Source: a virus. Taken from it: DNA of 64,000 nucleotides. The translations under genes and the position numbers were made by a program. The notes beneath the pieces are model-generated. The model made no database searches. It saw only the letters and a list, made by a program, of their open reading frames with translations, and was not told the origin of the DNA. How positions within the stretch are numbered: position 1 is the first letter of the stretch; each line of letters begins with the position of its first letter. Location of the stretch: the UHGV virus genome UHGV-0306641; one strand, written 5' to 3'. Shown here piece by piece: positions 1-12,047 of this stretch.

Positions 1-9
1 CCAGCTCTT

Positions 10-297
10 GTGCCACAACAATCTTCAAGCTTATCCATTCCCAAGTCTATGCCAACCGTTCAGGACCTGGCGAGCAGTGGAATCCGTCCTTCATTAAGCA
101 CTGACACTGCAAATCACGATGTAGATATCCTGAAAGAGTTAAGAGGCATGGGGTCTACGTTGGAGCAACTTTTAGGCGTTTCAAAACAGAAAGATGGCGC
201 ACCAGAAAAGGTTGTTCATACCGCGCAACCAGCACCGCGTAGAGCTGCATCATTCTCAATCAGAGATGCGGCGCTCGATGGTCTATTGAAGGATTAA
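10..297 (+). CDS. Hypothetical protein; may continue upstream of the window. Sits at the start of the baseplate/tail cluster.
   Basis: ORF with GTG start at 10; frame is open back to position 1. No recognisable motif. Confidence 0.3.
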   Translation: MPQQSSSLSIPKSMPTVQDLASSGIRPSLSTDTANHDVDILKELRGMGSTLEQLLGVSKQKDGAPEKVVHTAQPAPRRAASFSIRDAALDGLLKD

Positions 298-301
298 GTT
301 C

Positions 302-682
302 GTGATATATGAAATTGACGGGTTACTGAGAGTTGATGCTGGTGGTGTGATCGTGATGGAGGGGGCTGATAAGGCAGATCAGGCCCGTCTGGATGAGTGG
401 CTTAGAACACCTATCGGCAGTATTTACGGATTGCCATCATGGGGTAATCCGTTAGTGAATTTCAAACATGAACCGCTGGGATCGGAAAAAAGCGTTTTTG
501 TGGAGGTTGCCATAGAAAACGCATTGATTAAGAAGCTGCGGATTGATTTGCCCTCACTCAGAGTTTTTCAGGTGCGGTGCGCGGCTCTTTCAGTAGATAT
601 GTTGGAAATCATCTTTGCGATGCCGAGCGGCACATTCTCTACAACTTTCCGCATGAAAAACACCGATGGGAGAACATCTTGA
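302..682 (+). CDS. Baseplate wedge protein, gpW/gp25-like
   Basis: 126 aa, roughly the size of gpW. Lies directly upstream of the J-like gene with a TTGA stop/start overlap. Hydrophobic/Gly-Pro pattern (PIGSIYGLPSWGNPL) resembles the GPW_gp25 family. Confidence 0.4.
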   Translation: MIYEIDGLLRVDAGGVIVMEGADKADQARLDEWLRTPIGSIYGLPSWGNPLVNFKHEPLGSEKSVFVEVAIENALIKKLRIDLPSLRVFQVRCAALSVDMLEIIFAMPSGTFSTTFRMKNTDGRTS

Positions 683-2118
683 GCATTCAGGAGTTATTGG
701 AAAAATTTAATGGGTTGCTGCAAGACAAACCATGGTGGGCGCGTTTTGCGAATAGCCAGTTTATTCAGATGATGAGCATCTTTGGTGCCCAGGTTATCTA
801 TATGGCGCAAACCCATGCAAGGAGGGCGCTGGGGGAGGGGTTTATTTCTACGGCAACAAAGCGCTCAAGCATTCTCGCTGCAGCGGAAGATAGGGGGTAC
901 GTCGGGCCACTTATCACGCCATCATCTGGCGCAATAAGTATCAAGAATAAAACTAAGCAAGAACTACAGTTGCCGATTTATTCGGAATTTCTGTCATCAA
1001 TGGAATTACCCTATGTTCTTTCCGACGCTGTTACGATCCCTGCAGGTGAAGCCGTCGAAATCAGTAGTGTCAAACAAATGGAGCTGGTCCACATCCAGGC
1101 GAATATTGAGAAAGAAAGTGCGTTTTACACACTGCTTTTGCCGAAAGATATAACCTCTGAAACGGCCTCTATCGACGTGTTTGTCGTGGTGAACGGTGAG
1201 CGTAGGAAGTGGAAATACAATCCGATGTTCAGGCTGTCACGCGCCACCAGTGAGCATTACGTACTGGTGTATAGACCATCTGAACAGTTGGGCGTTCGAT
1301 TTGGTAATGGTTCGACTGGCGCAATGCCCCCTGCTGGGAGCCGGGTCGAGATCGAAGCCTGGTGTAGTCAGGGTGAAACAACGCTGGCCCAGGGCCAAAA
1401 GTTGACGCCTGCAGGTAATATCGCGTCAATGGTAGAAATGCTGGAAGTGGTTACAACCTCTCCGATCACCGGCGGTAGTGGCTTTGAATCAACGGAGGAT
1501 ACGCGCTATCGCGCGCAGTATTACGTACCGTTTGATGAACAAGTCGTTTGGGGTGGCGATTATAGTTATTTTATCCGGCGACACGTTCCCGGCTTGAGCT
1601 GGCTGGCGGTGTGGGGTGAGCAGCAACAAGAAGCAGCCACAGGCAAAAAAGACCTTCTCAACATCAATACGATTTTCTTCAGTGGGCATAAGCCCGGAGT
1701 AAGTCAGGAGCACCTGTCAGAGCTAATCTATAGCGCTCTAAAAGGCGTACCGAATTATCTGAATAAAAATTTCCGCTGGGTGCCTGTTAACCCGAAGCCC
1801 TTTACTATTTCGCTGACCGGTAGCGCAAATAAGAACGTGGTAATTAACGACGCGATCAAGGAGATACGGGACACGCTTGAAGCCCGCTTCGGCTATGACT
1901 CCACAAGCTTTGGGGATGAGTTAGAAGGTAACGACGTGCAATTTGTGCAGGTTAAAGTGAAAGACATGTGGGCGTGCGTCAATGACATGAAGTTGCTTAG
2001 TACGTTCGAAATAGTTGTTAACGGAATGCTGCCTTCTGAAAACCTGAATGACTTTATCTACCTCAACACGAAAGACTCTGTATTTGATATCCGCCTTCCT
2101 GGGGGGGTTATCCGATGA
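679..2118 (+). CDS. Baseplate J-like protein (gpJ/gp47 family)
   Basis: ~480 aa. Likely TTG start at 679 overlapping the upstream stop (the track ORF starts at 577). Position between the gpW-like and gpI-like genes. ATGA overlap with the next gene. Confidence 0.45.
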   Translation: MSIQELLEKFNGLLQDKPWWARFANSQFIQMMSIFGAQVIYMAQTHARRALGEGFISTATKRSSILAAAEDRGYVGPLITPSSGAISIKNKTKQELQLPIYSEFLSSMELPYVLSDAVTIPAGEAVEISSVKQMELVHIQANIEKESAFYTLLLPKDITSETASIDVFVVVNGERRKWKYNPMFRLSRATSEHYVLVYRPSEQLGVRFGNGSTGAMPPAGSRVEIEAWCSQGETTLAQGQKLTPAGNIASMVEMLEVVTTSPITGGSGFESTEDTRYRAQYYVPFDEQVVWGGDYSYFIRRHVPGLSWLAVWGEQQQEAATGKKDLLNINTIFFSGHKPGVSQEHLSELIYSALKGVPNYLNKNFRWVPVNPKPFTISLTGSANKNVVINDAIKEIRDTLEARFGYDSTSFGDELEGNDVQFVQVKVKDMWACVNDMKLLSTFEIVVNGMLPSENLNDFIYLNTKDSVFDIRLPGGVIR

Positions 2119-2960
2119 TCAAAGACTGGTTGAAAAAACAGTTAATACCAGAAAAGCAGGAAACAGGGCTATGGCCCGATTTTGCTGATGCTGTTCAGGT
2201 TGTTTACGAGGAACAGGTAAAGCCGCTACTGTCCCGATTAAGCGATCGTAAATCATTTTTCACTATGCACCCTGAAGATATGGATACCCGTATCAGTGAA
2301 TACGGGCGATTTTTCGTCATGGGTGAAACCGATAAGGCGAGCAGGCCTATTTTGCTGGCTCAGCGTCTGGATGAGGTCCATTTCAAAGGGACGGATCGTC
2401 CCATTGTTTCGACGTTCTGGCGTGAGTTCGGCAACCTGCCGGTGAACTGGGAACCTCTGTATGCACCACTTGATCAGGATCGCTTCCCATACGGTACGTT
2501 TTTTACAACCGAAAACGGTGTCAAAATCGCACAGGAGAGCTACGGGGAATTCTTTCTTACCTCTCGTGGCACAATCAACGTCGATCTAAACAAACTGTAT
2601 GAAATATACGGATATGAGGAACAGGACAAACTGATCAAACGCCTGATAAAAGACGTTGACCGAATTGTTGCCCCTTTACTTCCATTGGAAACTGTTTTTG
2701 ACGGTATTTCACTCAGGCTTGATTTCTGGTTGGAAGAGGCTGAAGAGGTAATGAAGTATGCCTCTGCAACGGTCGGGAGTAGCCGCGCATTTCTGTTTCA
2801 GCCGTTTCGCGAGTCTATAGAGCTGCAGCATGTGGAGGTAAGCTATGATGCTGGTGAAATTACGCCGCAAACGTGCTCGCAAGATCCTATTTATCTCAGA
2901 CTGGACACTATGCCGGTTGACGCTTGGCCCCTCGACTTGCACATCCTCAATCGTGGGTAG
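2115..2960 (+). CDS. Tail/baseplate protein (gpI-like by position)
   Basis: 281 aa, translationally coupled to the J-like gene (ATGA overlap) and upstream of the tail fibre. Confidence 0.3.
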   Translation: MIKDWLKKQLIPEKQETGLWPDFADAVQVVYEEQVKPLLSRLSDRKSFFTMHPEDMDTRISEYGRFFVMGETDKASRPILLAQRLDEVHFKGTDRPIVSTFWREFGNLPVNWEPLYAPLDQDRFPYGTFFTTENGVKIAQESYGEFFLTSRGTINVDLNKLYEIYGYEEQDKLIKRLIKDVDRIVAPLLPLETVFDGISLRLDFWLEEAEEVMKYASATVGSSRAFLFQPFRESIELQHVEVSYDAGEITPQTCSQDPIYLRLDTMPVDAWPLDLHILNRG

Positions 2961-3032
2961 GGGAGTTATGCGCCTGGTACAAAGTACAGACTGATTATTA
3001 TCCCGTCATAGTTCTAGTGACGGGGTTTTCAT

Positions 3033-3491
3033 ATGTCAGATGGCATCAATTTATCTTCGCCAATCGGCGGGAAGTACAAGGCAAAACTGCTTGATTATTA
3101 CTACACCCGTCGTGCGGAATCAGCGATCGGGATAGGTAGCCGCTTTAAGCTTACGAAAGCTTACTGGGGGCGCTCTGATCTGGTAACAAAAAATCCTGAC
3201 AGTGGCTGGGACATTGCCGAAATTCCAGCTGATTTCACCAACGATCAGCTAATCGGAAAATTTGCTGAGAGCGAACTGATTTGCACTTTGCAGGGAACAA
3301 CCATAACGGTAAGTATTGTCCTGCCTGAAGCGGCCCTGCCGGAAAATGATGTATTCGATTTTAATACTCTTGCGCTGATCGACGATCAGGGCAAAGTCTT
3401 TGCTGTGCTTTGCGCCCAGCAGGACAGTTTGTATAAGGGCAAAAGATACAACATCTTGCTCACGATTGAGCAGAAAGGAAACTCAAGATGA
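3033..3491 (+). CDS. Hypothetical tail-fibre-associated protein
   Basis: 152 aa; ATGA overlap with the tail fibre gene start at 3488. Confidence 0.3.
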   Translation: MSDGINLSSPIGGKYKAKLLDYYYTRRAESAIGIGSRFKLTKAYWGRSDLVTKNPDSGWDIAEIPADFTNDQLIGKFAESELICTLQGTTITVSIVLPEAALPENDVFDFNTLALIDDQGKVFAVLCAQQDSLYKGKRYNILLTIEQKGNSR

Positions 3492-5695
3492 GCGAGACTG
3501 TTAACAAGGTTGCCGTCCTGAGTTCAGCAGTTAAGCATGCTCTCGTGGCAGATGTTCAATATCTTGAGTACCACGCTTCCTCTGCTTTTAACCGCAAGAT
3601 GAAGGGGATTATTACTCCGGGTTTCTACGGTGGGTTTGAGCCTGCTCTTGCTGGTGGTTTAAACCTTAAAATTACATCATCGCAGGGGCCTGGCGGTCAT
3701 GGTGTGGCCTCGGTAGATGTAAATAACCATCAGATAACCGTTCAACAAATTGAAGACGTGACGCTGGCGATCCCGGTAAATGGTATTACACGCGTAATAC
3801 TGGAAGCTAACTACCAGTACGGAGTCAAAACCAGTCAAGTTGACGATAGTTCTGATATCGATGCAGCGCGGATTTTTACTGCAAATATTAGTGTGCCGCT
3901 GGCAGGTAATCATCTGGAAATATGCCGTGTAACGGTACCGGCTGATGCGACAGAATTGACGCTGGATATGATCGATTATTCACACCGGCAAAACAAGGCT
4001 CTTGGCATTACGTTAAGCAGTGAGATAGACAGCGACGCAGAACATATTGGCGCATCATCTCACGCGGTAAAAAAAGCAGTAAAAGCAGCTCGTGATGAAA
4101 CAGAAAAACAGATTGAAGAACTGGTAGATAATGCGCCAGCGAGTCTCGATACGTTGAAGAAAATTGCGGATGCCATTAACAACGATCCTGATTTCTTCAA
4201 CACTCTAAACGCGGTTTTGGCGCTGAAGGCTCCACTGAATGATCCTGCATTTACAGGAATTGTCACAGTACCTACGCCACCATTAAGCGTAATCAACCAG
4301 CAGGTTGCTAATACCGAATTTGTTCACGCAGCCGTTGCAGCGTTAGTTGGTTCATCTCCTGAAGCTCTGGACACCCTGGCTGAGTTAGCGCAGGCATTAG
4401 GCAATGATCCCAACTTTGCCACCACGATGCTCAATGCATTAGCTGGTAAGCAGCCTTTACATGATGTATTAACATCTCTTTCAGGCCTCAATTCTGCAGC
4501 TAACAAACTCGCATATTTTAATGGCCGTAATAGCATGTCCTTGGCAAATTTAACTGCCGTCGGACGTGTCTTGATTGGTCAAGAGTCTGTAGTGAAGGTT
4601 ATCGAATATCTTGGTTTACTCGAAACGATAAGTCTCGCTGCCGGATCACTGCAAAAAGAGCAGAACGGTGCTGATGTACCGCAGAAGGATTCGTTTGTAC
4701 GCAATATTGGGGCTGCGCGGGCTTTCAGTAGCTCTGTAAGCATTGGCGGCGGAGGTGACTGGACGACAGCAGAGTTTATCGTCTGGCTTGAATCTCAGGG
4801 GGCATTTAATCATCCGAACTGGATGTGTAAAGGTTCATGGTCATACGGTGATAACAGGGTTATTACTGATACAGGGTGCGGGAATATCCAGTTAGCCGGG
4901 GCGGTTGTTGAGGTAATGGGCGAGCGTGGTGCGATGACTATTCGTGTCACAACACCAACAACCGCAACAAGTGGAATTCCCAGTGCTCAGTTTACCTACA
5001 TCAATCATGGTGATGGATATTTACCGGGGTGGCGCAGGGATTACAATACCGTGAATCCACCCTCTGAAGCCTATCCTGTCGGCGCGCCTATTCCATGGCC
5101 TTCAGATACGCCACCAGCTAACCACGCTATTATGCAGGGACAAGCGTTCAATAAAGCTGCCTATCCATTACTTGCTGTGGCGTATCCATCCGGCGTTATC
5201 CCTGACATGCGAAGCCAGACGATAAAAGGCAAGCCCGATGGTCGTGCGGTCTTGTCTCAGGAGCTTGATGGTATTAAGTCACACGACCACGGCGCAACGG
5301 TCGCAGCTACCGACCTCGGAAACCTGAATACAACCGGATTCGATTACGGTAATAAATCTGTTACGGCTTTTGACTATGGCACGAAATCAACAAGCAGCGG
5401 AGGCGAACACGCCCACTCGTTAGATGTTTATTATCTCAACACTTCCCAGCAGGCAGCGAAAGTCGGTGCCGGTGGTCAGTGGGCTGGCGGGGTGGGAACT
5501 CAGGGAACTTATGCAGGTGGGGCGCATGCTCATTCTGTTGGTATTGGTGCGCACGATCACGTTGTTGGTATCGGAGCACATGCCCACTCTGTCTACATTG
5601 GTGCGCACAGTCACGGCGTGACCGTTTCGCCGTCTGGTCATGCAGAAAACACCGTAAAAAATACCGCATTTAATTATTTAGTGAGGCTTGCATGA
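3488..5695 (+). CDS. Tail fibre protein with C-terminal His-x-His repeat tip
   Basis: 735 aa, Gly/Ser/Thr-rich. C-terminus carries repeated GAHxHSVxIGAH motifs (5500-5650), as in the metal-binding HxH tip of T4 gp37-type fibres. Followed by a Tfa-type chaperone gene. Confidence 0.6.
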   Translation: MSETVNKVAVLSSAVKHALVADVQYLEYHASSAFNRKMKGIITPGFYGGFEPALAGGLNLKITSSQGPGGHGVASVDVNNHQITVQQIEDVTLAIPVNGITRVILEANYQYGVKTSQVDDSSDIDAARIFTANISVPLAGNHLEICRVTVPADATELTLDMIDYSHRQNKALGITLSSEIDSDAEHIGASSHAVKKAVKAARDETEKQIEELVDNAPASLDTLKKIADAINNDPDFFNTLNAVLALKAPLNDPAFTGIVTVPTPPLSVINQQVANTEFVHAAVAALVGSSPEALDTLAELAQALGNDPNFATTMLNALAGKQPLHDVLTSLSGLNSAANKLAYFNGRNSMSLANLTAVGRVLIGQESVVKVIEYLGLLETISLAAGSLQKEQNGADVPQKDSFVRNIGAARAFSSSVSIGGGGDWTTAEFIVWLESQGAFNHPNWMCKGSWSYGDNRVITDTGCGNIQLAGAVVEVMGERGAMTIRVTTPTTATSGIPSAQFTYINHGDGYLPGWRRDYNTVNPPSEAYPVGAPIPWPSDTPPANHAIMQGQAFNKAAYPLLAVAYPSGVIPDMRSQTIKGKPDGRAVLSQELDGIKSHDHGATVAATDLGNLNTTGFDYGNKSVTAFDYGTKSTSSGGEHAHSLDVYYLNTSQQAAKVGAGGQWAGGVGTQGTYAGGAHAHSVGIGAHDHVVGIGAHAHSVYIGAHSHGVTVSPSGHAENTVKNTAFNYLVRLA

Positions 5696-6303
5696 TTAAA
5701 TTAATTCTTTCAGCACCTGTTCCTGAAATCGCGAAAGCATTTGAGCGAAATTTTTCCGATGATGAAAATGTAGAAATTATCAGAAAGCCGTTTCAAGCAA
5801 TTCCAGATTTTGATTGTATGGTCAGTGCCGCTAACTCTTTTGGTCTAATGGATGGAGGTGTTGATGCTGCTATTACAGCTTTTTTTGGCACGCAACTAAT
5901 GACCAGAGTTCAGCAGAAAATTGTTGATGAATATTTGGGTGAGCAACCCGTTGGTTCTGCTTTTGTTATAGGTAGTGGAGATTATAAACATCCTTGGCTA
6001 GTACATGCCCCAACGATGCGTGTGCCTTTAATTATCGACGGTACTGACGCTGTTTATCTTGCTACGCGGGCAGCATTGCTTGCTGTATATCACCACAACA
6101 AGACACATCCAGAACACAGTAAAATTTGGCGTGTTGTTTTTCCTGCTATGGGGGCTGGATGTGGGCAGGTATCACCCGAAAGTGTAGCTGCACAAATGAA
6201 ATTGGCGTGGCGGAGCGTTATAACCCCGCCGTCCTACATTAATTGGCAGCATGCTATTGGAAGACAGCGTGCAGTTCATTCATCCTGTAGTGGAGCTTTA
6301 TAA
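5692..6303 (+). CDS. Macro domain protein (ADP-ribose binding/hydrolase fold)
   Basis: 'DCMVSAANSFGLMDGGVDAAITAFFG' matches the macrodomain signature 'DAIVNAAN..L.GGGGVDGAI..AAG'. A later 'GSAFVIGSG..HPWLVHAPT' matches 'G.A.iT.aG.L.akyVIHaVGP'. ATGA and TAATG overlaps with both neighbours. Lower GC than flanking genes. Confidence 0.7.
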   Translation: MIKLILSAPVPEIAKAFERNFSDDENVEIIRKPFQAIPDFDCMVSAANSFGLMDGGVDAAITAFFGTQLMTRVQQKIVDEYLGEQPVGSAFVIGSGDYKHPWLVHAPTMRVPLIIDGTDAVYLATRAALLAVYHHNKTHPEHSKIWRVVFPAMGAGCGQVSPESVAAQMKLAWRSVITPPSYINWQHAIGRQRAVHSSCSGAL

Positions 6304-6881
6304 TGACTTTTAAAATGACCAATACTAACCGCACTATTACTATTTACAACTTGTCGTCTTCTACTAACGAATTTATCGGTCAAGGCGATGGATATATCCC
6401 GGCAAATACTGGATTACCTGCTTACAGTACTGATATTGCACCGCCAGCAGAGAAGGATGGATTTGTCGCTGTGTTTGATTTTGAATCGGGCAAATGGTCA
6501 CTTGTAGAAGACCATCGTGGGAAAGTTGTCTACGACATCAACACGGGAGAGTCCATCACAATTAACCAGTTAGGCGCACTACCGGATGACGTTGTTTCCA
6601 TTGCTCCCGAAAGCCATTTTGCGAAATGGGACGGGGAAAAATGGGTGCATGATACTGACGCAGAAAAAACAGCGCAGATTACGCAGGCGACACAGCAAAA
6701 AGAAAGCCTTTTTGCTCTGGCTACATCAAAAATTGGACCATTGCTAGATGCTGTTGATGAGAAAATGGCGACGCCAGAAGAAACCGTGTTACTGTCAGAG
6801 TGGAAAAAATACCGCGTTTTACTTAATCGCATCAATCCAAATGATGCGCCAGATATTAACTGGCCTGAATTGCCGAATTAA
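6303..6881 (+). CDS. Tail fibre assembly chaperone (Tfa / P1 U-like)
   Basis: 192 aa. N-terminal 'TIYNLSS...FIGQGDGYIPANTGLP' and 'WDGEKWVHDTDAE' are typical of Tfa-family proteins. Immediately downstream of the fibre gene. Confidence 0.55.
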   Translation: MTFKMTNTNRTITIYNLSSSTNEFIGQGDGYIPANTGLPAYSTDIAPPAEKDGFVAVFDFESGKWSLVEDHRGKVVYDINTGESITINQLGALPDDVVSIAPESHFAKWDGEKWVHDTDAEKTAQITQATQQKESLFALATSKIGPLLDAVDEKMATPEETVLLSEWKKYRVLLNRINPNDAPDINWPELPN

Positions 6882-6930
6882 TTAAGTATACATACTTAAC
6901 TACTTCACTTGCTCTTTAGTTCTTTTGTTA

Positions 6931-6974
6931 ATAGACTCTCTAACTTTTAATTAGAGTTTGAGAGTCTATTTAAT
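6931..6974. terminator. Bidirectional hairpin between convergent tfa and the GT8 gene
   Basis: AATAGACTCTC...GAGAGTCTATT perfect 11-bp inverted arms around an AT-rich loop, in an AT-rich convergent intergenic region. Confidence 0.4.
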
Positions 6975-7002
6975 GAAGATTGTGATATTGATATAATTAA
7001 AA

Positions 7003-7950
7003 TTATTTTCTTTTAAGTTTGCTTTTAAGATATTTTAAATACCATTTTAAAAAAGAAAAATACTTCCCTTTTTTAGCAAACTGGCGAGCATAAACTCTGT
7101 AATCAGTAGGCCTCATACGCGATGAGTATGAACGAAGAGGTGTGCTACGCCATGGAGTAAGGTTGTGATAGAGGAAATAAATGTGTTGGGCTAAACCAGT
7201 ATGTTCTTTATACCATGGTTTTCTGCTTCCGGTGAAATGAATGATTTTAGGGATAGAATTAGGAGAGTAGAAAAACTTTTCTTTTTCTTCATCCGTATAC
7301 CAAGTAAATAAAAAATTCCAGCGATTATCTATGAACTTGACGCGACCATTTATTGCTATATTTAAGGCGTCTTGATCTGGAAAACGCAATGAATTTCCTT
7401 TTTCAAGTAACACTATGTTAGCTTTGTTCTCGATATCATGCTTTATCCAGTTTTCGACATTGATATAGAGAAAGCCAGAATTAAAATAGTTACCGCTATT
7501 TAAACCGAGGCGATGTGCATTTTTGTTATCATCTGTTTTTATTGAGTCATGACAGACTGCGCAAACTACATCACTAATGTCTATATCATTAATGCTAGTA
7601 ATTTCATCAAAGCACAAGGTGTCTGCATCCAGATAGATAAACCTCTCTACTTTTCCATTAAGTAATCTGGGGGCAAGAAGCCTCATGTAAATAGAGCGGT
7701 TTAGATGCTTGATAGTGAAATCGTCATCATACTTGTCTATTTCTTCATTTTCTATTTTTATAACATTAATAAATTTACTGGTTAGTTTTAACTTTGCAAT
7801 GTCTTCATCGCTTACATCATAAACAAAAACGTAAAATGATAATGACTGGTGAGGATTATTCGTTAGGACAGAAATTATTGATGTGGAGACATATTCCAAA
7901 TAGTTAGCATCTGTACAATAGGCTATGTTTATGACGGAGTTATTTTCCAT
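7003..7950 (-). CDS. Family 8 glycosyltransferase (LPS 1,2/1,3-glycosyltransferase RfaJ/WaaI-like); probable lysogenic-conversion moron
   Basis: 315 aa. 'IAYCTDANYLEY' N-terminus and the 'YLDADTLCFDEI' DxD motif are typical of GT8 (Glyco_transf_8). About 30% GC versus about 50% elsewhere. Opposite strand, flanked by AT-rich spacers. Confidence 0.7.
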   Translation of the reverse strand: MENNSVINIAYCTDANYLEYVSTSIISVLTNNPHQSLSFYVFVYDVSDEDIAKLKLTSKFINVIKIENEEIDKYDDDFTIKHLNRSIYMRLLAPRLLNGKVERFIYLDADTLCFDEITSINDIDISDVVCAVCHDSIKTDDNKNAHRLGLNSGNYFNSGFLYINVENWIKHDIENKANIVLLEKGNSLRFPDQDALNIAINGRVKFIDNRWNFLFTWYTDEEKEKFFYSPNSIPKIIHFTGSRKPWYKEHTGLAQHIYFLYHNLTPWRSTPLRSYSSRMRPTDYRVYARQFAKKGKYFSFLKWYLKYLKSKLKRK

Positions 7951-8425
7951 ATTGTTTATTTTTCCTAAGAAATTATTTTTCGATAATTGATAGTCTTCCC
8001 TGGGGTACGCCTACACCAGAATCGAGAGATTTCCGTCCCGTGATGCTTACATATCTTTTTGAACTTCACTAATAAAAGCTCCAGTCGTTTCGGATACTCC
8101 GCATTATTATAACCATGTTTTGTATGGGTGATCTACGTTCATGCTGACTATTACGGGCTGTTGACATAGTGGCGCGCAAAAAACAGCCAGGATCTGCAAA
8201 AGTTGAAAAAGAGGAGCCGTGATGTAACGCCTCAATGCTTGCTTGTAACTCAACTTCAACTTTTTATCGTAAAAAATTAGCCATTCAACAAGTGACCTAT
8301 CGAAAGTAAGCTTGGGAGAAGGCTTACTCGGTACAAAATCCCACATCTACACTCAACGCTTTTCAACTGCAATACACATACTCACTACTCTGCACCTTTC
8401 AAATCAGCAGTTTTACGGAGGGTTT

Positions 8426-8740
8426 GTGGCAGAAGTAGAAGCGAATCTCATACAGGCGCTTTTCCTGTCGCTACTCAGCGGCATTGGCGTTTTCCTGCAT
8501 GGGGTGCGCGAGGAAAGGATAAAAGCGTCATCCCTTAACTTGCTCACCGAATTGGTGTTAGCGGTACTAGCAGGATTGACCGCTTATTACATCGCCAGAC
8601 ATAAGGCCTGGGACGATAGCTTGCTATATCTCGCCGTGCTCGTTGTTAGCAACAACGGTCGCGAGGTGTCTACAGCTCTCAAAAACCGACTTATCGACAC
8701 AATCCAATATTTATTTGGGCCAAAAGGGGGCCGGGGCTAA
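8426..8740 (+). CDS. Holin-like membrane protein (P1 LydA-like by size and position)
   Basis: Likely GTG start at 8426 after a GGAGGG RBS, giving ~104 aa with two hydrophobic helices. First gene of the darA-operon-like block. Confidence 0.35.
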   Translation: MAEVEANLIQALFLSLLSGIGVFLHGVREERIKASSLNLLTELVLAVLAGLTAYYIARHKAWDDSLLYLAVLVVSNNGREVSTALKNRLIDTIQYLFGPKGGRG

Positions 8741-9189
8741 TGAACGATATTCAACAATATTTCCTTGTGGGAATGGCTGCGATAGCGGTGCTCGATCGCT
8801 TTTTGTGTAAAAGAAAGCAGGTCGTGTTGCTGGGGGCCGGTGAAGGCGTCGTTAAGGACAATGCGATAGCTTTCCCGGTTAAGTTTAAGGTCAATTGCGA
8901 GAAGCTAACCGGCGCGCATATCGAATATTGGTTGCGCGACTCCAGTAACCCCACGGCGGTAATTACAGGCAAGACCAGAACACTGGATTTAACGCCCAAG
9001 GGCTTAAACCAGGAGTATTTACTTATTGATACTCGCTATCTGGATACGGGGACCTGGGAACTAACGATCCGTGTAACACACGGCAATAGTCGAATGAATC
9101 CGCTGTATCGCATTTTCCCGCTTCAGGAATCGACTTCCCGTAATTACCTCATCAAAAAGGAGAAAGGGGGATACAGTGTCATCAACTAA
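8740..9189 (+). CDS. Antiholin-like protein (P1 LydB-like by size and position)
   Basis: 149 aa (P1 LydB is ~147 aa). TAATG coupling to the upstream gene. Confidence 0.3.
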   Translation: MNDIQQYFLVGMAAIAVLDRFLCKRKQVVLLGAGEGVVKDNAIAFPVKFKVNCEKLTGAHIEYWLRDSSNPTAVITGKTRTLDLTPKGLNQEYLLIDTRYLDTGTWELTIRVTHGNSRMNPLYRIFPLQESTSRNYLIKKEKGGYSVIN

Positions 9190-9808
9190 AGATAAGGGCT
9201 ATATCACGCTTAACTTTGACGAGTTGAACGAGAAAGGCCTGGATAAGCTGAAGAAGGCTATTTCTAAATCAGGGTATGAGGTTGTCAAAATCATACCTGC
9301 AGGCACAGCCCGTCGAAAAGATGGTATCCCAGTAAAAACTTTCGAGCTGAAAGGGATTGATGAGCAGGCCATGGTTGTTCAGGTCAACAACACTGGTGAT
9401 ATCTCTGGCATTAAGCTGAACGGCAAGAACGCACCATACACTCCCGTCAAAACTATGGCTGAGCTGGGTAAATCATTGGCTGATTTATTCCGTAAAGGCT
9501 CCACCGCATTTCAGAAAGCGTTAGCCAGAAAGCTCGCGCGGGCTGCGAAAAAAGATGAGGCTGGCAGTAAGCCAAAAACGACTAAAGGCGTTAAATCCAG
9601 TGTGCAGATCCTCAGCGATGCGCGCGCACGTCGTGAGGAACTGAAGGGTGGTATTACCGCGACTCAAAAGAAAATTGAGTCCTTATCCTCTGATTCCGAC
9701 ATGACGCAAAAGTCGCGTGAAAACATCCAGGCCGAGCTAAACCTAGAGCTGGCAAAAACCAGTCAGTTAGAGAAAGAGATCGCACAACTGCAGAAGGGGG
9801 AAAAATGA
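9176..9808 (+). CDS. Coiled-coil protein, Hdf-like by position in a darA-type operon
   Basis: 210 aa, Lys-rich, C-terminal heptad coiled coil. Overlaps the next gene (ATGA). Confidence 0.3.
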   Translation: MSSTKDKGYITLNFDELNEKGLDKLKKAISKSGYEVVKIIPAGTARRKDGIPVKTFELKGIDEQAMVVQVNNTGDISGIKLNGKNAPYTPVKTMAELGKSLADLFRKGSTAFQKALARKLARAAKKDEAGSKPKTTKGVKSSVQILSDARARREELKGGITATQKKIESLSSDSDMTQKSRENIQAELNLELAKTSQLEKEIAQLQKGEK

Positions 9809-11712
9809 CCGTTACACTGACTGACAAAATTCTTCTGAAAGACGTGCCTGGCTATATAGCGCCTGCAGTTTCTGATGATATTTACAACGAACTGATGAAA
9901 GGCCAGAGCGCCGATTTGATGCTGGAAAGCGCCACTATTGAAGAAGTGGACCAGTCTTATCTTGGCGATGAGCTGGTCTATGTCTCTCATGCCGCAATGT
10001 TTGAAGCGATTAGCACTGAACGTATGCGTTTGTCGCAGACCATGCGCGCGTTTGTCAGAGCTTTAAATCGCGGTTTGAACGGAACCGACATTAAAGCTGG
10101 TACGGATGATGCTGGCCTGGACGATAGCGGCGAAAAAACGATTGGAGGGGCTATAATCGGTAAGGTTCGCCGGGTGAACAGTATTCCAATCATGACGGCG
10201 CTGATTCCATTATCAGATGGGCAGTCAATTTCCCTTGTTTTCCACTCTCCGACTGCAGATAACGGGCGCGTAAAGAACAATGATTTGCTGGTGGCTTTCC
10301 GTTTCTTGCTGAACAAGCGCGATGTAACACACATTGTGGCCCCTATTGGCGGTCGCGATGTGTCTCTGCAGCAAGTAACGCAAGCTCTTGCAAACTTGGC
10401 AGAGCGTAACAGCGCAAAATTCACGAAACAGCAAGATGCCCAAGTTAAATTACGCGGTGATATTGACGCGCTGAACGCTGAAAACGATCAGTTAAGCGAA
10501 CAACAATCCTCGTTGCTAACTCAGGTCGAATCACTACAGACCAAGTTAATCGCACATCAGAACGATGAGCGGGACGTGCGGGAGAAGCTCGCTAACCAGC
10601 GTCGAATTAATGCCGAACTGGAGGCTCAAATTGTAGCTTTGCAGGGAGTATCTCAGGCCGGTACCACTGATACCGGTTCATCTTTCACGGATACAACGCG
10701 TAAAGTGAAAGACCGTATGGGTATTGATGGTAAGGCTACTCTGAGTAATGGGGCCATAATCCGTTACAACTCATATGATCAGGACGGCGAGCTGCAAGGT
10801 AGCGTAATTATTACCGATCCATCTGGTAAGGTTTATGAAATGCCATCCCCATCATCCCAGGGTGGGGCTATGGGGGTTACAGCAACTAAATTACTGAAAG
10901 CCTATAGAGAGAATCGCGCTGATCGTTACGTTGTCACGACACCGCCGCCGGAGCCGCCGCCAGAACTCCCCCCGGAGCAACCGCTAGAACAACCGCCGGA
11001 GTTGCCGCCAGAACAGCCGCCGGAACCAACAGCTAAATACCGGTATGCTCTTACAAGTCGCCCTGCGAGTATCGGCGCTGTCCCTGCAGATCACACTGCA
11101 ATTTTGGATGTGCCGGAACAGAGCGATAAATATGGTCGTTTGGCACGTCATGGTTTCATTGAATACGATCGTAAGCTGACAGAGCAGGAAGTCTCTAATT
11201 TTGAGTTGAAGCTGATTCCGACCCTGGCGGATCTCGATGTACTGGCGAAAACGGTCATTAGTGAATCAATGGCTAATTACGCACAGCAATATGTTGAAAT
11301 GGCTGAGACTGACCCGGCAACGTTCGGTTCTCAGGTGAAGCTGAATACGAAGAAAGCTGCGCCGAACATTGCTTACCCGGAAGGCGACGATCTCGATTAC
11401 TTTATGGAGAAAGTTAAAGCCGAGTTAGTAAGCCAAACACCTCCCGCGCCGCCGCAGACTAATGAGGAAACTCCCGTGGTATCTGAAGCCGATAAAGCTG
11501 CAAATGAGGCGTTAGGCTATCTGGATGTTGTTATGCAGCTGCAGTCAAAAGACATAGCGGAAATCCGTGATGCCCGTAGCAAGGTTCGCGGGGCTATTGC
11601 CGCACTGCAGAACGCTGGTCGTTTTGACGAAAATGAAGACAAAGTGAATGCCGCTGCGCAACACCTGTCAGATTTGCTTGTGGCAATTCAAAGAGAGGGG
11701 GCTGGAGCATGA
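9805..11712 (+). CDS. DarA-like internal head / antirestriction-associated protein
   Basis: 635 aa (P1 DarA is ~639 aa). Gene order lydA-lydB-hdf-darA-ddrA-ddrB is matched. Contains a central coiled coil and a tandem PPEQPPEL proline-rich repeat (10930-11030). Confidence 0.4.
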   Translation: MTVTLTDKILLKDVPGYIAPAVSDDIYNELMKGQSADLMLESATIEEVDQSYLGDELVYVSHAAMFEAISTERMRLSQTMRAFVRALNRGLNGTDIKAGTDDAGLDDSGEKTIGGAIIGKVRRVNSIPIMTALIPLSDGQSISLVFHSPTADNGRVKNNDLLVAFRFLLNKRDVTHIVAPIGGRDVSLQQVTQALANLAERNSAKFTKQQDAQVKLRGDIDALNAENDQLSEQQSSLLTQVESLQTKLIAHQNDERDVREKLANQRRINAELEAQIVALQGVSQAGTTDTGSSFTDTTRKVKDRMGIDGKATLSNGAIIRYNSYDQDGELQGSVIITDPSGKVYEMPSPSSQGGAMGVTATKLLKAYRENRADRYVVTTPPPEPPPELPPEQPLEQPPELPPEQPPEPTAKYRYALTSRPASIGAVPADHTAILDVPEQSDKYGRLARHGFIEYDRKLTEQEVSNFELKLIPTLADLDVLAKTVISESMANYAQQYVEMAETDPATFGSQVKLNTKKAAPNIAYPEGDDLDYFMEKVKAELVSQTPPAPPQTNEETPVVSEADKAANEALGYLDVVMQLQSKDIAEIRDARSKVRGAIAALQNAGRFDENEDKVNAAAQHLSDLLVAIQREGAGA

Positions 11713-12047
11713 ATTTAAGCGCACTTGAGCGCCTTGACCTGAATGACCGCTTGGATGAGCTGATGGTTCAGGCCACAACAGCTAAAGGGCTGGATTTGCT
11801 GGATTTGAATGACGAAATCGACGCTATTTTGGTGAAACTGGGTTACGGTACTGAATCAATCCCAGCTGAAGATAATACACCGTCTATCGTTAAAGACTTT
11901 CTCTCCGGAAAGTTTGCAAAACAGGCCCAAATGGATTTTGTGGATACGCTGCGCCAGGTCGGTGAGTACCTTAACGAATTTCTGTCACTGGACGATATGA
12001 AGGGCCAGGCCAATGCGTGGGTTGCTCAGAATGACTACTCCATCTGA
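11709..12047 (+). CDS. Small acidic protein (DdrA-like by position)
   Basis: 112 aa; ATGA overlap with the darA-like gene. Confidence 0.3.
   Translation: MNLSALERLDLNDRLDELMVQATTAKGLDLLDLNDEIDAILVKLGYGTESIPAEDNTPSIVKDFLSGKFAKQAQMDFVDTLRQVGEYLNEFLSLDDMKGQANAWVAQNDYSI

Follow-up and report, generated by a model that had tools for sequence, protein, structure and literature searches.

A predicted Macro2-type macrodomain without the usual tail, carried in a mobile tail-fibre cassette of a Citrobacter P1/D6-like phage-plasmid

The DNA analysed here, UHGV virus genome UHGV-0306641 (a stretch of 64,000 nucleotides, called the window in what follows), is a P1/D6-like phage-plasmid of Citrobacter. 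Its tail-fibre region contains a gene for a protein of 203 amino acids (aa), predicted to be a macrodomain of the Macro2/Ymx7 type, that stands between the gene for an HxH-tipped tail fibre and the gene for a Tfa-type chaperone (Table 1). An initial annotation made from the sequence had recognised a macrodomain signature in this open reading frame (ORF). The residues that it quoted are present in the translation, and the protein matches Pfam Macro (PF01661) with 57.9 bits against a gathering cutoff of 22 (E 1.2e-15), over residues 44-168 of the protein and positions 1-117 of the 118 in the profile. A second profile, phrog_2613, matches it near end to end over residues 1-198 (E 3.9e-94).

The macro gene overlaps both of its neighbours in the manner that the initial annotation described. 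At the fibre/macro junction, GCATGATTAAA, the TGA stop codon of the fibre gene overlaps the macro ATG by four nucleotides (ATGA), and at the macro/Tfa junction, TTATAATGACT, the macro TAA overlaps the Tfa ATG (TAATG); a Shine-Dalgarno-like motif, GAGG or GGAG, lies ahead of both. The domain and profile matches in Table 1 bear out the reading of the upstream ORF as an HxH-tipped tail fibre and of the downstream ORF as a Tfa-type chaperone. The ratio of nonsynonymous to synonymous substitution (dN/dS) is 0.13-0.19 for the window gene against two homologues of about 89% protein identity, which indicates that the gene is real rather than a chance ORF and that it is under purifying selection. By sequence it is a real and intact macrodomain of the adenosine diphosphate ribose (ADP-ribose) type, with a predicted function. 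The guanine plus cytosine (GC) content of the gene had been described as visibly lower than that of both neighbours. This is correct with respect to the fibre gene (0.431 vs 0.487) but not with respect to Tfa (0.435); only the GC content at third codon positions (GC3) falls below both, at 0.289 compared with 0.424 for the fibre and 0.394 for Tfa. There are no promoter-like or terminator-like sites at the borders of the macro gene, and the region has fewer promoter-like sites than its shuffles (7 vs 11.6 +/- 4.3). Translation of the macro gene would be coupled to that of the fibre gene, and its expression would be late.

Table 1. Features of the fibre-macro-Tfa region, in window coordinates.
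Feature	Coordinates	Strand	Description
Tail fibre, 735 aa	3488-5695	+	Collar domain, many tail-fibre PHROGs, six HxH motifs
Replaced segment	4689-8283	.	about 3.6 kilobases; fibre C-terminal half, macro gene, Tfa gene and reverse-strand glycosyltransferase gene; blastn boundaries
Fibre-tip hypervariable insert	5359-5562	+	about 200 nucleotides, between the outgoing and returning HxH arms
Macrodomain gene, 203 aa	5692-6303	+	ATG ORF; predicted Macro2/Ymx7 type; short form without the four-cysteine (Cys4) and HxH tail
Tfa chaperone, 192 aa	6303-6881	+	lambda Tfa / P2 gpG type; Caudo_TAP E 5.1e-36; phrog_105 E 7e-84
Family-8 glycosyltransferase	7003-7950	-	lipopolysaccharide galactosyltransferase-like; Glyco_transf_8 E 3.5e-50; GC 0.335

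The AlphaFold2 (AF2) model of the 203-aa protein has a predicted local distance difference test score (pLDDT) of 97.1 and a predicted template modelling score (pTM) of 0.93, and it shows the three-layer alpha/beta/alpha organisation of a macro fold. The nearest solved structure and the nearest profile match are both yeast Ymx7/YMR087W (PDB 1NJR, 1TXZ and 1TY8), an ADP-ribose-1''-monophosphatase to which the window protein is 20-22% identical. A phmmer search of the PDB sequences with the single protein gave no match, and the matches came with the profile search. The activity given here for Ymx7 is based on the title of its PDB entry and on PMC6397177, according to which the Macro2-type clade that includes YMR087W converts ADP-ribose-1''-phosphate to ADP-ribose and has "no de-MARylating activity" (removal of mono-ADP-ribose). 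Ymx7 is a cellular protein, tied in the literature to the pathway for a by-product of transfer RNA (tRNA) splicing, whereas the window gene lies in what is probably a phage late operon. The window protein is best classed as a Macro2/Ymx7-type macrodomain with a predicted activity.

Conservation was assessed in a family alignment of 77 diverse homologues and in a phage-clade alignment of 32 sequences. In the former, N48, P107 and G158 are invariant, and S49, G51, M53, G55, G56, D58, G83, G88, T108, M109, R110 and P112 are at least 90% conserved. The motifs of an ADP-ribose pocket are present, Asn...GG[VLI]D in loop 1 and a Gly-rich loop 2, and in a profile alignment to human MacroD2, N48 and D58 fall on the catalytic Asn and Asp of that enzyme. 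With N48, G55, G56, D58 and G158 all kept, the catalytic pocket, whose absence would have spoken against a functional macrodomain, is in place.

The route by which the macro gene reached this phage-plasmid can be traced from its flanks, whose boundaries were mapped by blastn against pCfr13-1 and N15-like elements. The close relative pCfr13-1 matches window positions 1-4688 at 94% and 8284-12000 at 95%, and is unmatched between them. Its counterpart of the unmatched segment (5189-11333, about 6.1 kilobases) encodes three alternative fibre tips, three Tfa genes and a recombinase, an arrangement that reads as an invertible host-range segment. The invertible multi-tip segment and the recombinase appear to persist in each of the seven close relatives from Citrobacter in PLSDB; in their place the window has one fixed fibre tip. 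N15-like linear plasmid prophages of Citrobacter, which encode protelomerase and SopA/ParB-type partition genes, match window positions 4271-5358 and 5563-6865 at 82-88%. The second of these matches continues unbroken from the 3' end of the fibre gene, through all of the macro gene, into Tfa. No breakpoint falls at either border of the macro gene in this comparison with the N15-like elements, which indicates that the macro gene entered as part of a cassette and not alone. The initial annotation had suggested a moron insertion. This reading finds no support in a gene that has no promoter-like or terminator-like site of its own, that shows no breakpoint at its borders in that comparison and whose start and stop codons overlap its neighbours; in composition, the gene equals Tfa in overall GC and lies below both neighbours in GC3. 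The cassette, together with a low-GC glycosyltransferase gene, would have displaced the invertible multi-tip segment and recombinase that the nearest relatives have, and an N15-like plasmid prophage, or an element much like one, is the probable donor.

The fibre gene itself is composite. Its N-terminal part belongs to the P1/D6-like backbone, and its C-terminal part consists of the Collar domain and a gp37-like HxH-repeat tip that ends ...GHAENTVKNTAFNYLVRLA (...NTAFNYLVRLA). The hypervariable insert is the sole part of the cassette without a nucleotide match to the N15-like relatives. Fibre-tip sequences vary from carrier to carrier, and the insert is probably the receptor-binding loop that contacts the receptor.

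The initial annotation knew of no macrodomain in this position in P1-type fibre operons, an impression of rarity that the wider distribution does not bear out. The order fibre-macro-Tfa, with the same four-nucleotide overlap, is found in the lambdoid prophage Gifsy-1, in the P2-like phages SEN4/SEN5 and Chuche, in N15-like elements and in P1-type elements. True P1-type plasmids of E. coli and E. albertii carry S fibre-macro-Tfa in the same slot, one of them with an IncY replicon and with genes for a holin, a lysis protein and ddrA nearby, and a macrodomain gene at this locus is largely routine in related phage-plasmids. Among 80 IMG/VR loci that encode relatives of at least 65% identity, the upstream ORF ends (F/Y/L)NYIVRLA and overlaps the macro start by four nucleotides in 77; the other three are cut by a contig end or correspond to an outgroup described below (L087). 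Tfa lies downstream in nearly all of these loci, and the macro ORF is intact in all 80. The family comprises 1,675 protein clusters at 90% identity, most of those listed being from Salmonella, Escherichia, Citrobacter and Erwinia. Their annotated names are "macro domain-containing protein" or "phage tail protein", and many of the clusters are found at full length. It is very common in Salmonella prophages, and one allele group occurs in 128 of 5,426 complete E. coli genomes (about 2%), in 109 chromosomal and 22 plasmid places.

Among plasmids in PLSDB, the macro gene is found on 46, of which about 30 are within the size range of P1-type plasmids and two of those are verified as P1-type, and about 634 carry a homologue of a P1/D6-type tail gene. 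The cassette is a recurrent minority among P1/D6-type plasmids. It is present in none of the seven close Citrobacter relatives, and the records of classical P1, P7 and D6 are not among the homologue matches, which explains why the initial annotation knew of no such case. Exchange of fibre-tip/Tfa cassettes is established for P1, P2, Mu and lambda-type phages. The window cassette is likewise common to P1-like, N15-like, lambdoid and P2-like backbones and exchanged as a block, but it differs in having an extra enzyme gene between fibre and chaperone, and in having replaced an invertible segment rather than forming part of one. The macro family is a fixed passenger of one mobile host-range cassette that consists of the HxH-tip fibre C-terminus, the macro gene and Tfa.

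Most members of this family differ from the window protein at the C-terminus. The phrog_2613 relatives, which include Gifsy-1 STM2588.1n, SEN4/SEN5 gp19, Chuche CDS0053 and the "macro domain-containing protein" of P1-type plasmids, are 69-75% identical to it over residues 1-198 and occupy the same slot, from an ...NYIVRLA fibre to Tfa, with the same ATGA overlap, but most cassette-borne macro proteins are 269-300 aa long. Their tail begins after residue ~198 (about positions 199-274 of phrog_2613) and consists of four near-invariant Cys residues (C202, C208, C225 and C232 in protein P0042), followed by two to four "IGAHxH" nonamer repeats. Such long forms were seen in P0010, P0012, P0042 and P0105, and at loci L001 (4001-4825) and L011 (9001-9903). 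The long-form repeats align to the fibre HxH repeats at residues 678-715 with 50% identity over 40 aa (E 5e-9), and the tail resembles a fragment of fibre tip joined to the enzyme. A tail of this kind could serve in trimerisation or in docking on the fibre or on Tfa. The AF2 monomer of P0042 has a mean pLDDT of 61, falling to 28-54 in the tail, and gives no confident tail structure.

In DNA alignments the window gene differs from the long forms by a clean in-frame gap of 210-290 nucleotides. The short form is common only to the window, the Citrobacter N15-like elements and three IMG/VR contigs. A neighbour-joining tree recovers the short forms as one clade (100% bootstrap), nested within the long forms beside a 269-aa protein of Citrobacter braakii, and long forms are monophyletic to the exclusion of short forms in just 11% of replicates. 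A derived deletion is therefore the likeliest origin of the short form, and the purifying selection that acts on this form indicates that the macrodomain works without the tail.

Beyond the cassette, the chromosomes of Cyanobacteria, Chloroflexota, Bacteroidota and Planctomycetota encode homologues at 46-53% identity, as standalone proteins of about 200 aa outside any phage context. The genes around them are unrelated (for example EF-G paralogues, FemAB, phosphorylases and methyltransferases), and no fibre or Tfa family is among the 25 commonest families of 84 proteins that neighbour the cellular homologues. The closest outgroups of the fibre-cassette clade, at 64-65% identity (L174 4134-4757 and L087 479-1171), are tail-less phage genes that are not part of a fibre module. 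One is placed upstream of terminase, with a ParB/methyltransferase gene on one side and further ParB-like genes on the other, and the second directly precedes a holin-endolysin-spanin cassette. Macro proteins of giant viruses and proteins of jumbo phages (Noxifer, and PhiPA3 gene 271) are the best matches in the viral structure library BFVD. A homologue in the Klebsiella jumbo phage FBKp24, labelled "tail protein", is encoded a few genes from an RNA 2'-phosphotransferase and near thymidylate synthase (L008 1451-2014, 3911-4510). RNA 2'-phosphotransferase makes the precursor of ADP-ribose-1''-phosphate, and this gene context would fit the processing of ADP-ribose-1''-phosphate that is the chemistry of Macro2. 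We considered and rejected the "tail protein" labels of jumbo-phage homologues as structural evidence; these genes lie among genes of nucleotide and RNA metabolism, and annotation transfer is likely. In the Microcystis phage Mae-JY35, a 41% identical macro gene (L009 3935-4492) is flanked by genes for a virion structural protein (phrog_3287) and for a DNA ejection protein (phrog_4287), and it may represent an independent macrodomain within a block of virion-protein genes. The overall pattern suggests that a cellular enzyme was captured by phages more than once, and that one capture, between a fibre tip and its chaperone, then spread. An ancient capture of the macro gene from a cellular gene is plausible.

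What the protein does is a matter of prediction. The reading that we favour, which has in our judgement about an even chance of being correct, is that it is a folded, probably active Macro2-type macrodomain, a cytoplasmic enzyme or binder of a small ADP-ribose-1''-linked molecule, made late and carried in the cassette as a fixed passenger. Synthesised late through coupling to the fibre gene, it would act in the cytoplasm as a hydrolase or as a tight binder, and the candidate substrates are ADP-ribose-1''-phosphate or a product derived from nicotinamide adenine dinucleotide (NAD) in the infected host. Our confidence is high for the identity, class and genomic history of the gene and low for the substrate; the enzymatic activity, the class of substrate and any benefit to the phage are predictions. 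The initial annotation had offered two ideas, reversal of ADP-ribosylation set by a host defence and removal of a signalling nucleotide, and it is the second, taken as the removal of a small molecule derived from ADP-ribose, that fits the fold class better.

Several points weigh against the favoured reading. Pfam Macro_2 (PF14519) scores 24.5 bits against a cutoff of 27, with residues 38-101 alone matched; a precomputed PF14519 match is present in many close homologues. The lack of de-MARylation by Macro2 proteins rests on one studied member, the yeast protein (PMC6397177). The Asn/Asp pair is also used by the MacroD protein de-ADP-ribosylases, and a macromolecular substrate is possible. Our search of the full-text literature found no study of the fibre-linked macro family and no biochemical or genetic data for the phage clade. 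Late, fibre-coupled expression would be an odd timing for a general counter-defence enzyme. Finally, the family is strictly linked to one fibre type and most homologues have a Cys4 and HxH tail that resembles the fibre, both of which hint at a role connected with the fibre that a cytoplasmic enzyme does not explain.

An alternative that we consider unlikely, although it is the strongest of those remaining, is that the protein erases ADP-ribose placed on phage DNA, RNA or protein by DarT, CmdT or another ADP-ribosyltransferase (ART), and in this way rescues infection. The retained Asn/Asp pair speaks for it. The MacroD-type proteins (human MacroD2, E. coli YmdB and the Oceanobacillus macrodomain) give significant profile and fold matches, although the NCBIfam equivalogs score 20-50 bits against cutoffs of 200-315. 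A difference lies in loop 2, where FPAMGAGCGQ of the window protein aligns to FPCISTGIYG of MacroD2; the aromatic Tyr of GIYG, part of the MacroD motif G-[VIA]-[YF]-G, is replaced by the invariant G158. This proposal was the first idea of the initial annotation; a DarG-like form of it, acting on ADP-ribosylated DNA, is less likely than the small-molecule reading and finds no support here. Catalysis by DarG2 of T. aquaticus uses N22 and K80 (PMC13309987), whereas no Lys is invariant or at least 90% conserved in either the 77-sequence family alignment or the 32-sequence phage-clade alignment. The PADLOC models for DarG and ThsA gave no match at E <= 0.01. To this must be added the Macro2/Ymx7 fold, the report of a clade devoid of de-MARylation (PMC6397177) and an expression that is probably late.

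The AdfM anti-DarT macrodomains (T4 Tk.4, and PhiKZ gp104 / PhiPA3 gp108) are of the DarG-like class and are encoded outside tail-fibre operons, unlike the Macro2-type window protein. In the BFVD comparison the T4-type Tk.4 homologue ranks only 46th, with a query-normalised template modelling score (TMq) of 0.50, and the PhiPA3 relative is gene 271, not gp108. These comparisons place the window protein outside both macrodomain families that are known to overcome DarTG2. PhiPA3 has two macrodomain proteins, the published DarG2-like AdfM gp108 and gene 271, the Macro2-like relative of the window protein. Because the cassette moves between four unrelated backbones, a fixed ART partner must sit either in the cassette or in the host; the cassette holds no ART partner, and no search was made for a phage ART elsewhere in the window.

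Slightly less likely again is a role in association with the fibre, in which the protein would dock on the fibre tip or on Tfa and be virion-borne or act in assembly, as an accessory adhesin or an enzyme at the cell surface or one delivered on infection. The linkage of nearly 100% to one fibre-tip type over four unrelated backbones, with a conserved four-nucleotide overlap, supports such a role, as do the resemblance of the long-form Cys4 and IGAHxH tail to the HxH repeats of the fibre and the place of the Microcystis phage homologue amid virion structural and DNA ejection genes. However, the window protein is tail-less and still under purifying selection, the closest outgroups do not belong to fibre modules, the broader family is made up of cellular proteins that look cytoplasmic, the jumbo-phage "tail protein" labels look like annotation transfer, and the AF2 long-form model lends the tail no confident structure. 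Hitchhiking between the two ends of the fibre/Tfa cassette, both of them prone to recombination, could by itself account for the linkage; the purifying selection indicates that the macro gene is nevertheless useful.

An improbable but more specific variant of the small-molecule reading would make the macro protein an antidote linked to its trigger. A 2026 preprint (bioRxiv 10.64898/2026.06.04.730250) reports that how sensitive Pseudomonas phages are to type II Thoeris, whose signal is a histidine-ADP-ribose conjugate (His-ADPR), depends on their side tail fibres together with the chaperones of these. By analogy, a Toll/interleukin-1 receptor (TIR) or other NAD-consuming immunity of the host would sense the fibre tip together with Tfa, and the macro protein would hydrolyse or sequester the ADP-ribose-1''-linked signal just as the trigger is produced. 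A silencer of immunity would then travel with the cassette into every new recombinant, and the long forms would have, in their tail, a means of bringing the enzyme to where the fibre is assembled. A fold class that handles ADP-ribose-1'' derivatives, the probable fibre-coupled expression and the near-absolute linkage are consistent with such an arrangement. An O-acetyl esterase acting on O-antigen, by analogy with the O-acetyl-ADP-ribose deacetylases, is speculation. Finally, a functionless hitchhiker, carried since it sits between a co-exchanged fibre tip and Tfa, would suit the exchange of the cassette as a block and the atypical GC3 that suggests a foreign origin, but is very improbable given the dN/dS among short forms, the intact ORF at every one of the 80 viral loci, the many full-length clusters and the family-wide conservation of the pocket residues.

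The family, its macrodomain nature and its adjacency to tail fibres are already in public annotation, namely in the Gifsy-1 record, which reads "contains pfam01661, Macro domain", in the names given by the Prokaryotic Genome Annotation Pipeline (PGAP) and in PHROGs. Specific to the window are the short allele without a tail and, in a Citrobacter P1/D6-like phage-plasmid, the substitution of the cassette for an invertible fibre segment. These findings raise the question of why a widely exchanged host-range cassette of enterobacterial temperate phages always carries a predicted ADP-ribose-processing enzyme, usually with a tail that resembles a fibre tip. If the favoured small-molecule enzyme, or an eraser of ADP-ribose marks, does remove an NAD-derived immune signal or such a mark, then a counter-defence gene that is very common has been overlooked, and it would affect the behaviour of transplanted fibre modules when phages are engineered. 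The question is open to direct test, given that long and tail-less forms exist as a natural pair and that tractable phages (such as Chuche, SEN4/5, Gifsy-1 and P1-type plasmids) are available.

Downstream of Tfa, on the reverse strand, the glycosyltransferase gene also matches NF011718 (E 4.6e-41), under the cutoff of that model. An acetyltransferase gene fills the same slot in the same orientation in other carriers (N15-like L005/L006 and the P1-type plasmid L011), and the glycosyltransferase is a candidate receptor-modifying gene, of the lysogenic-conversion kind, attached to the cassette.

Two further ORFs of the window deserve mention. The ORF at 577-2118, listed with a GTG start, overlaps the ORF at 302-682 by about 100 nucleotides. 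The baseplate gene of a related plasmid starts at the equivalent of window position 679, so that the true start of this ORF is probably further downstream than listed. The ORF at 9805-11712 (635 aa), whose homologue in a related plasmid is named "head protein", contains at 10950-11150 a Pro/Glu-rich repeat, PPPEPPPELPPEQPLEQPPELPPEQPPEP, that is locally GC-rich.

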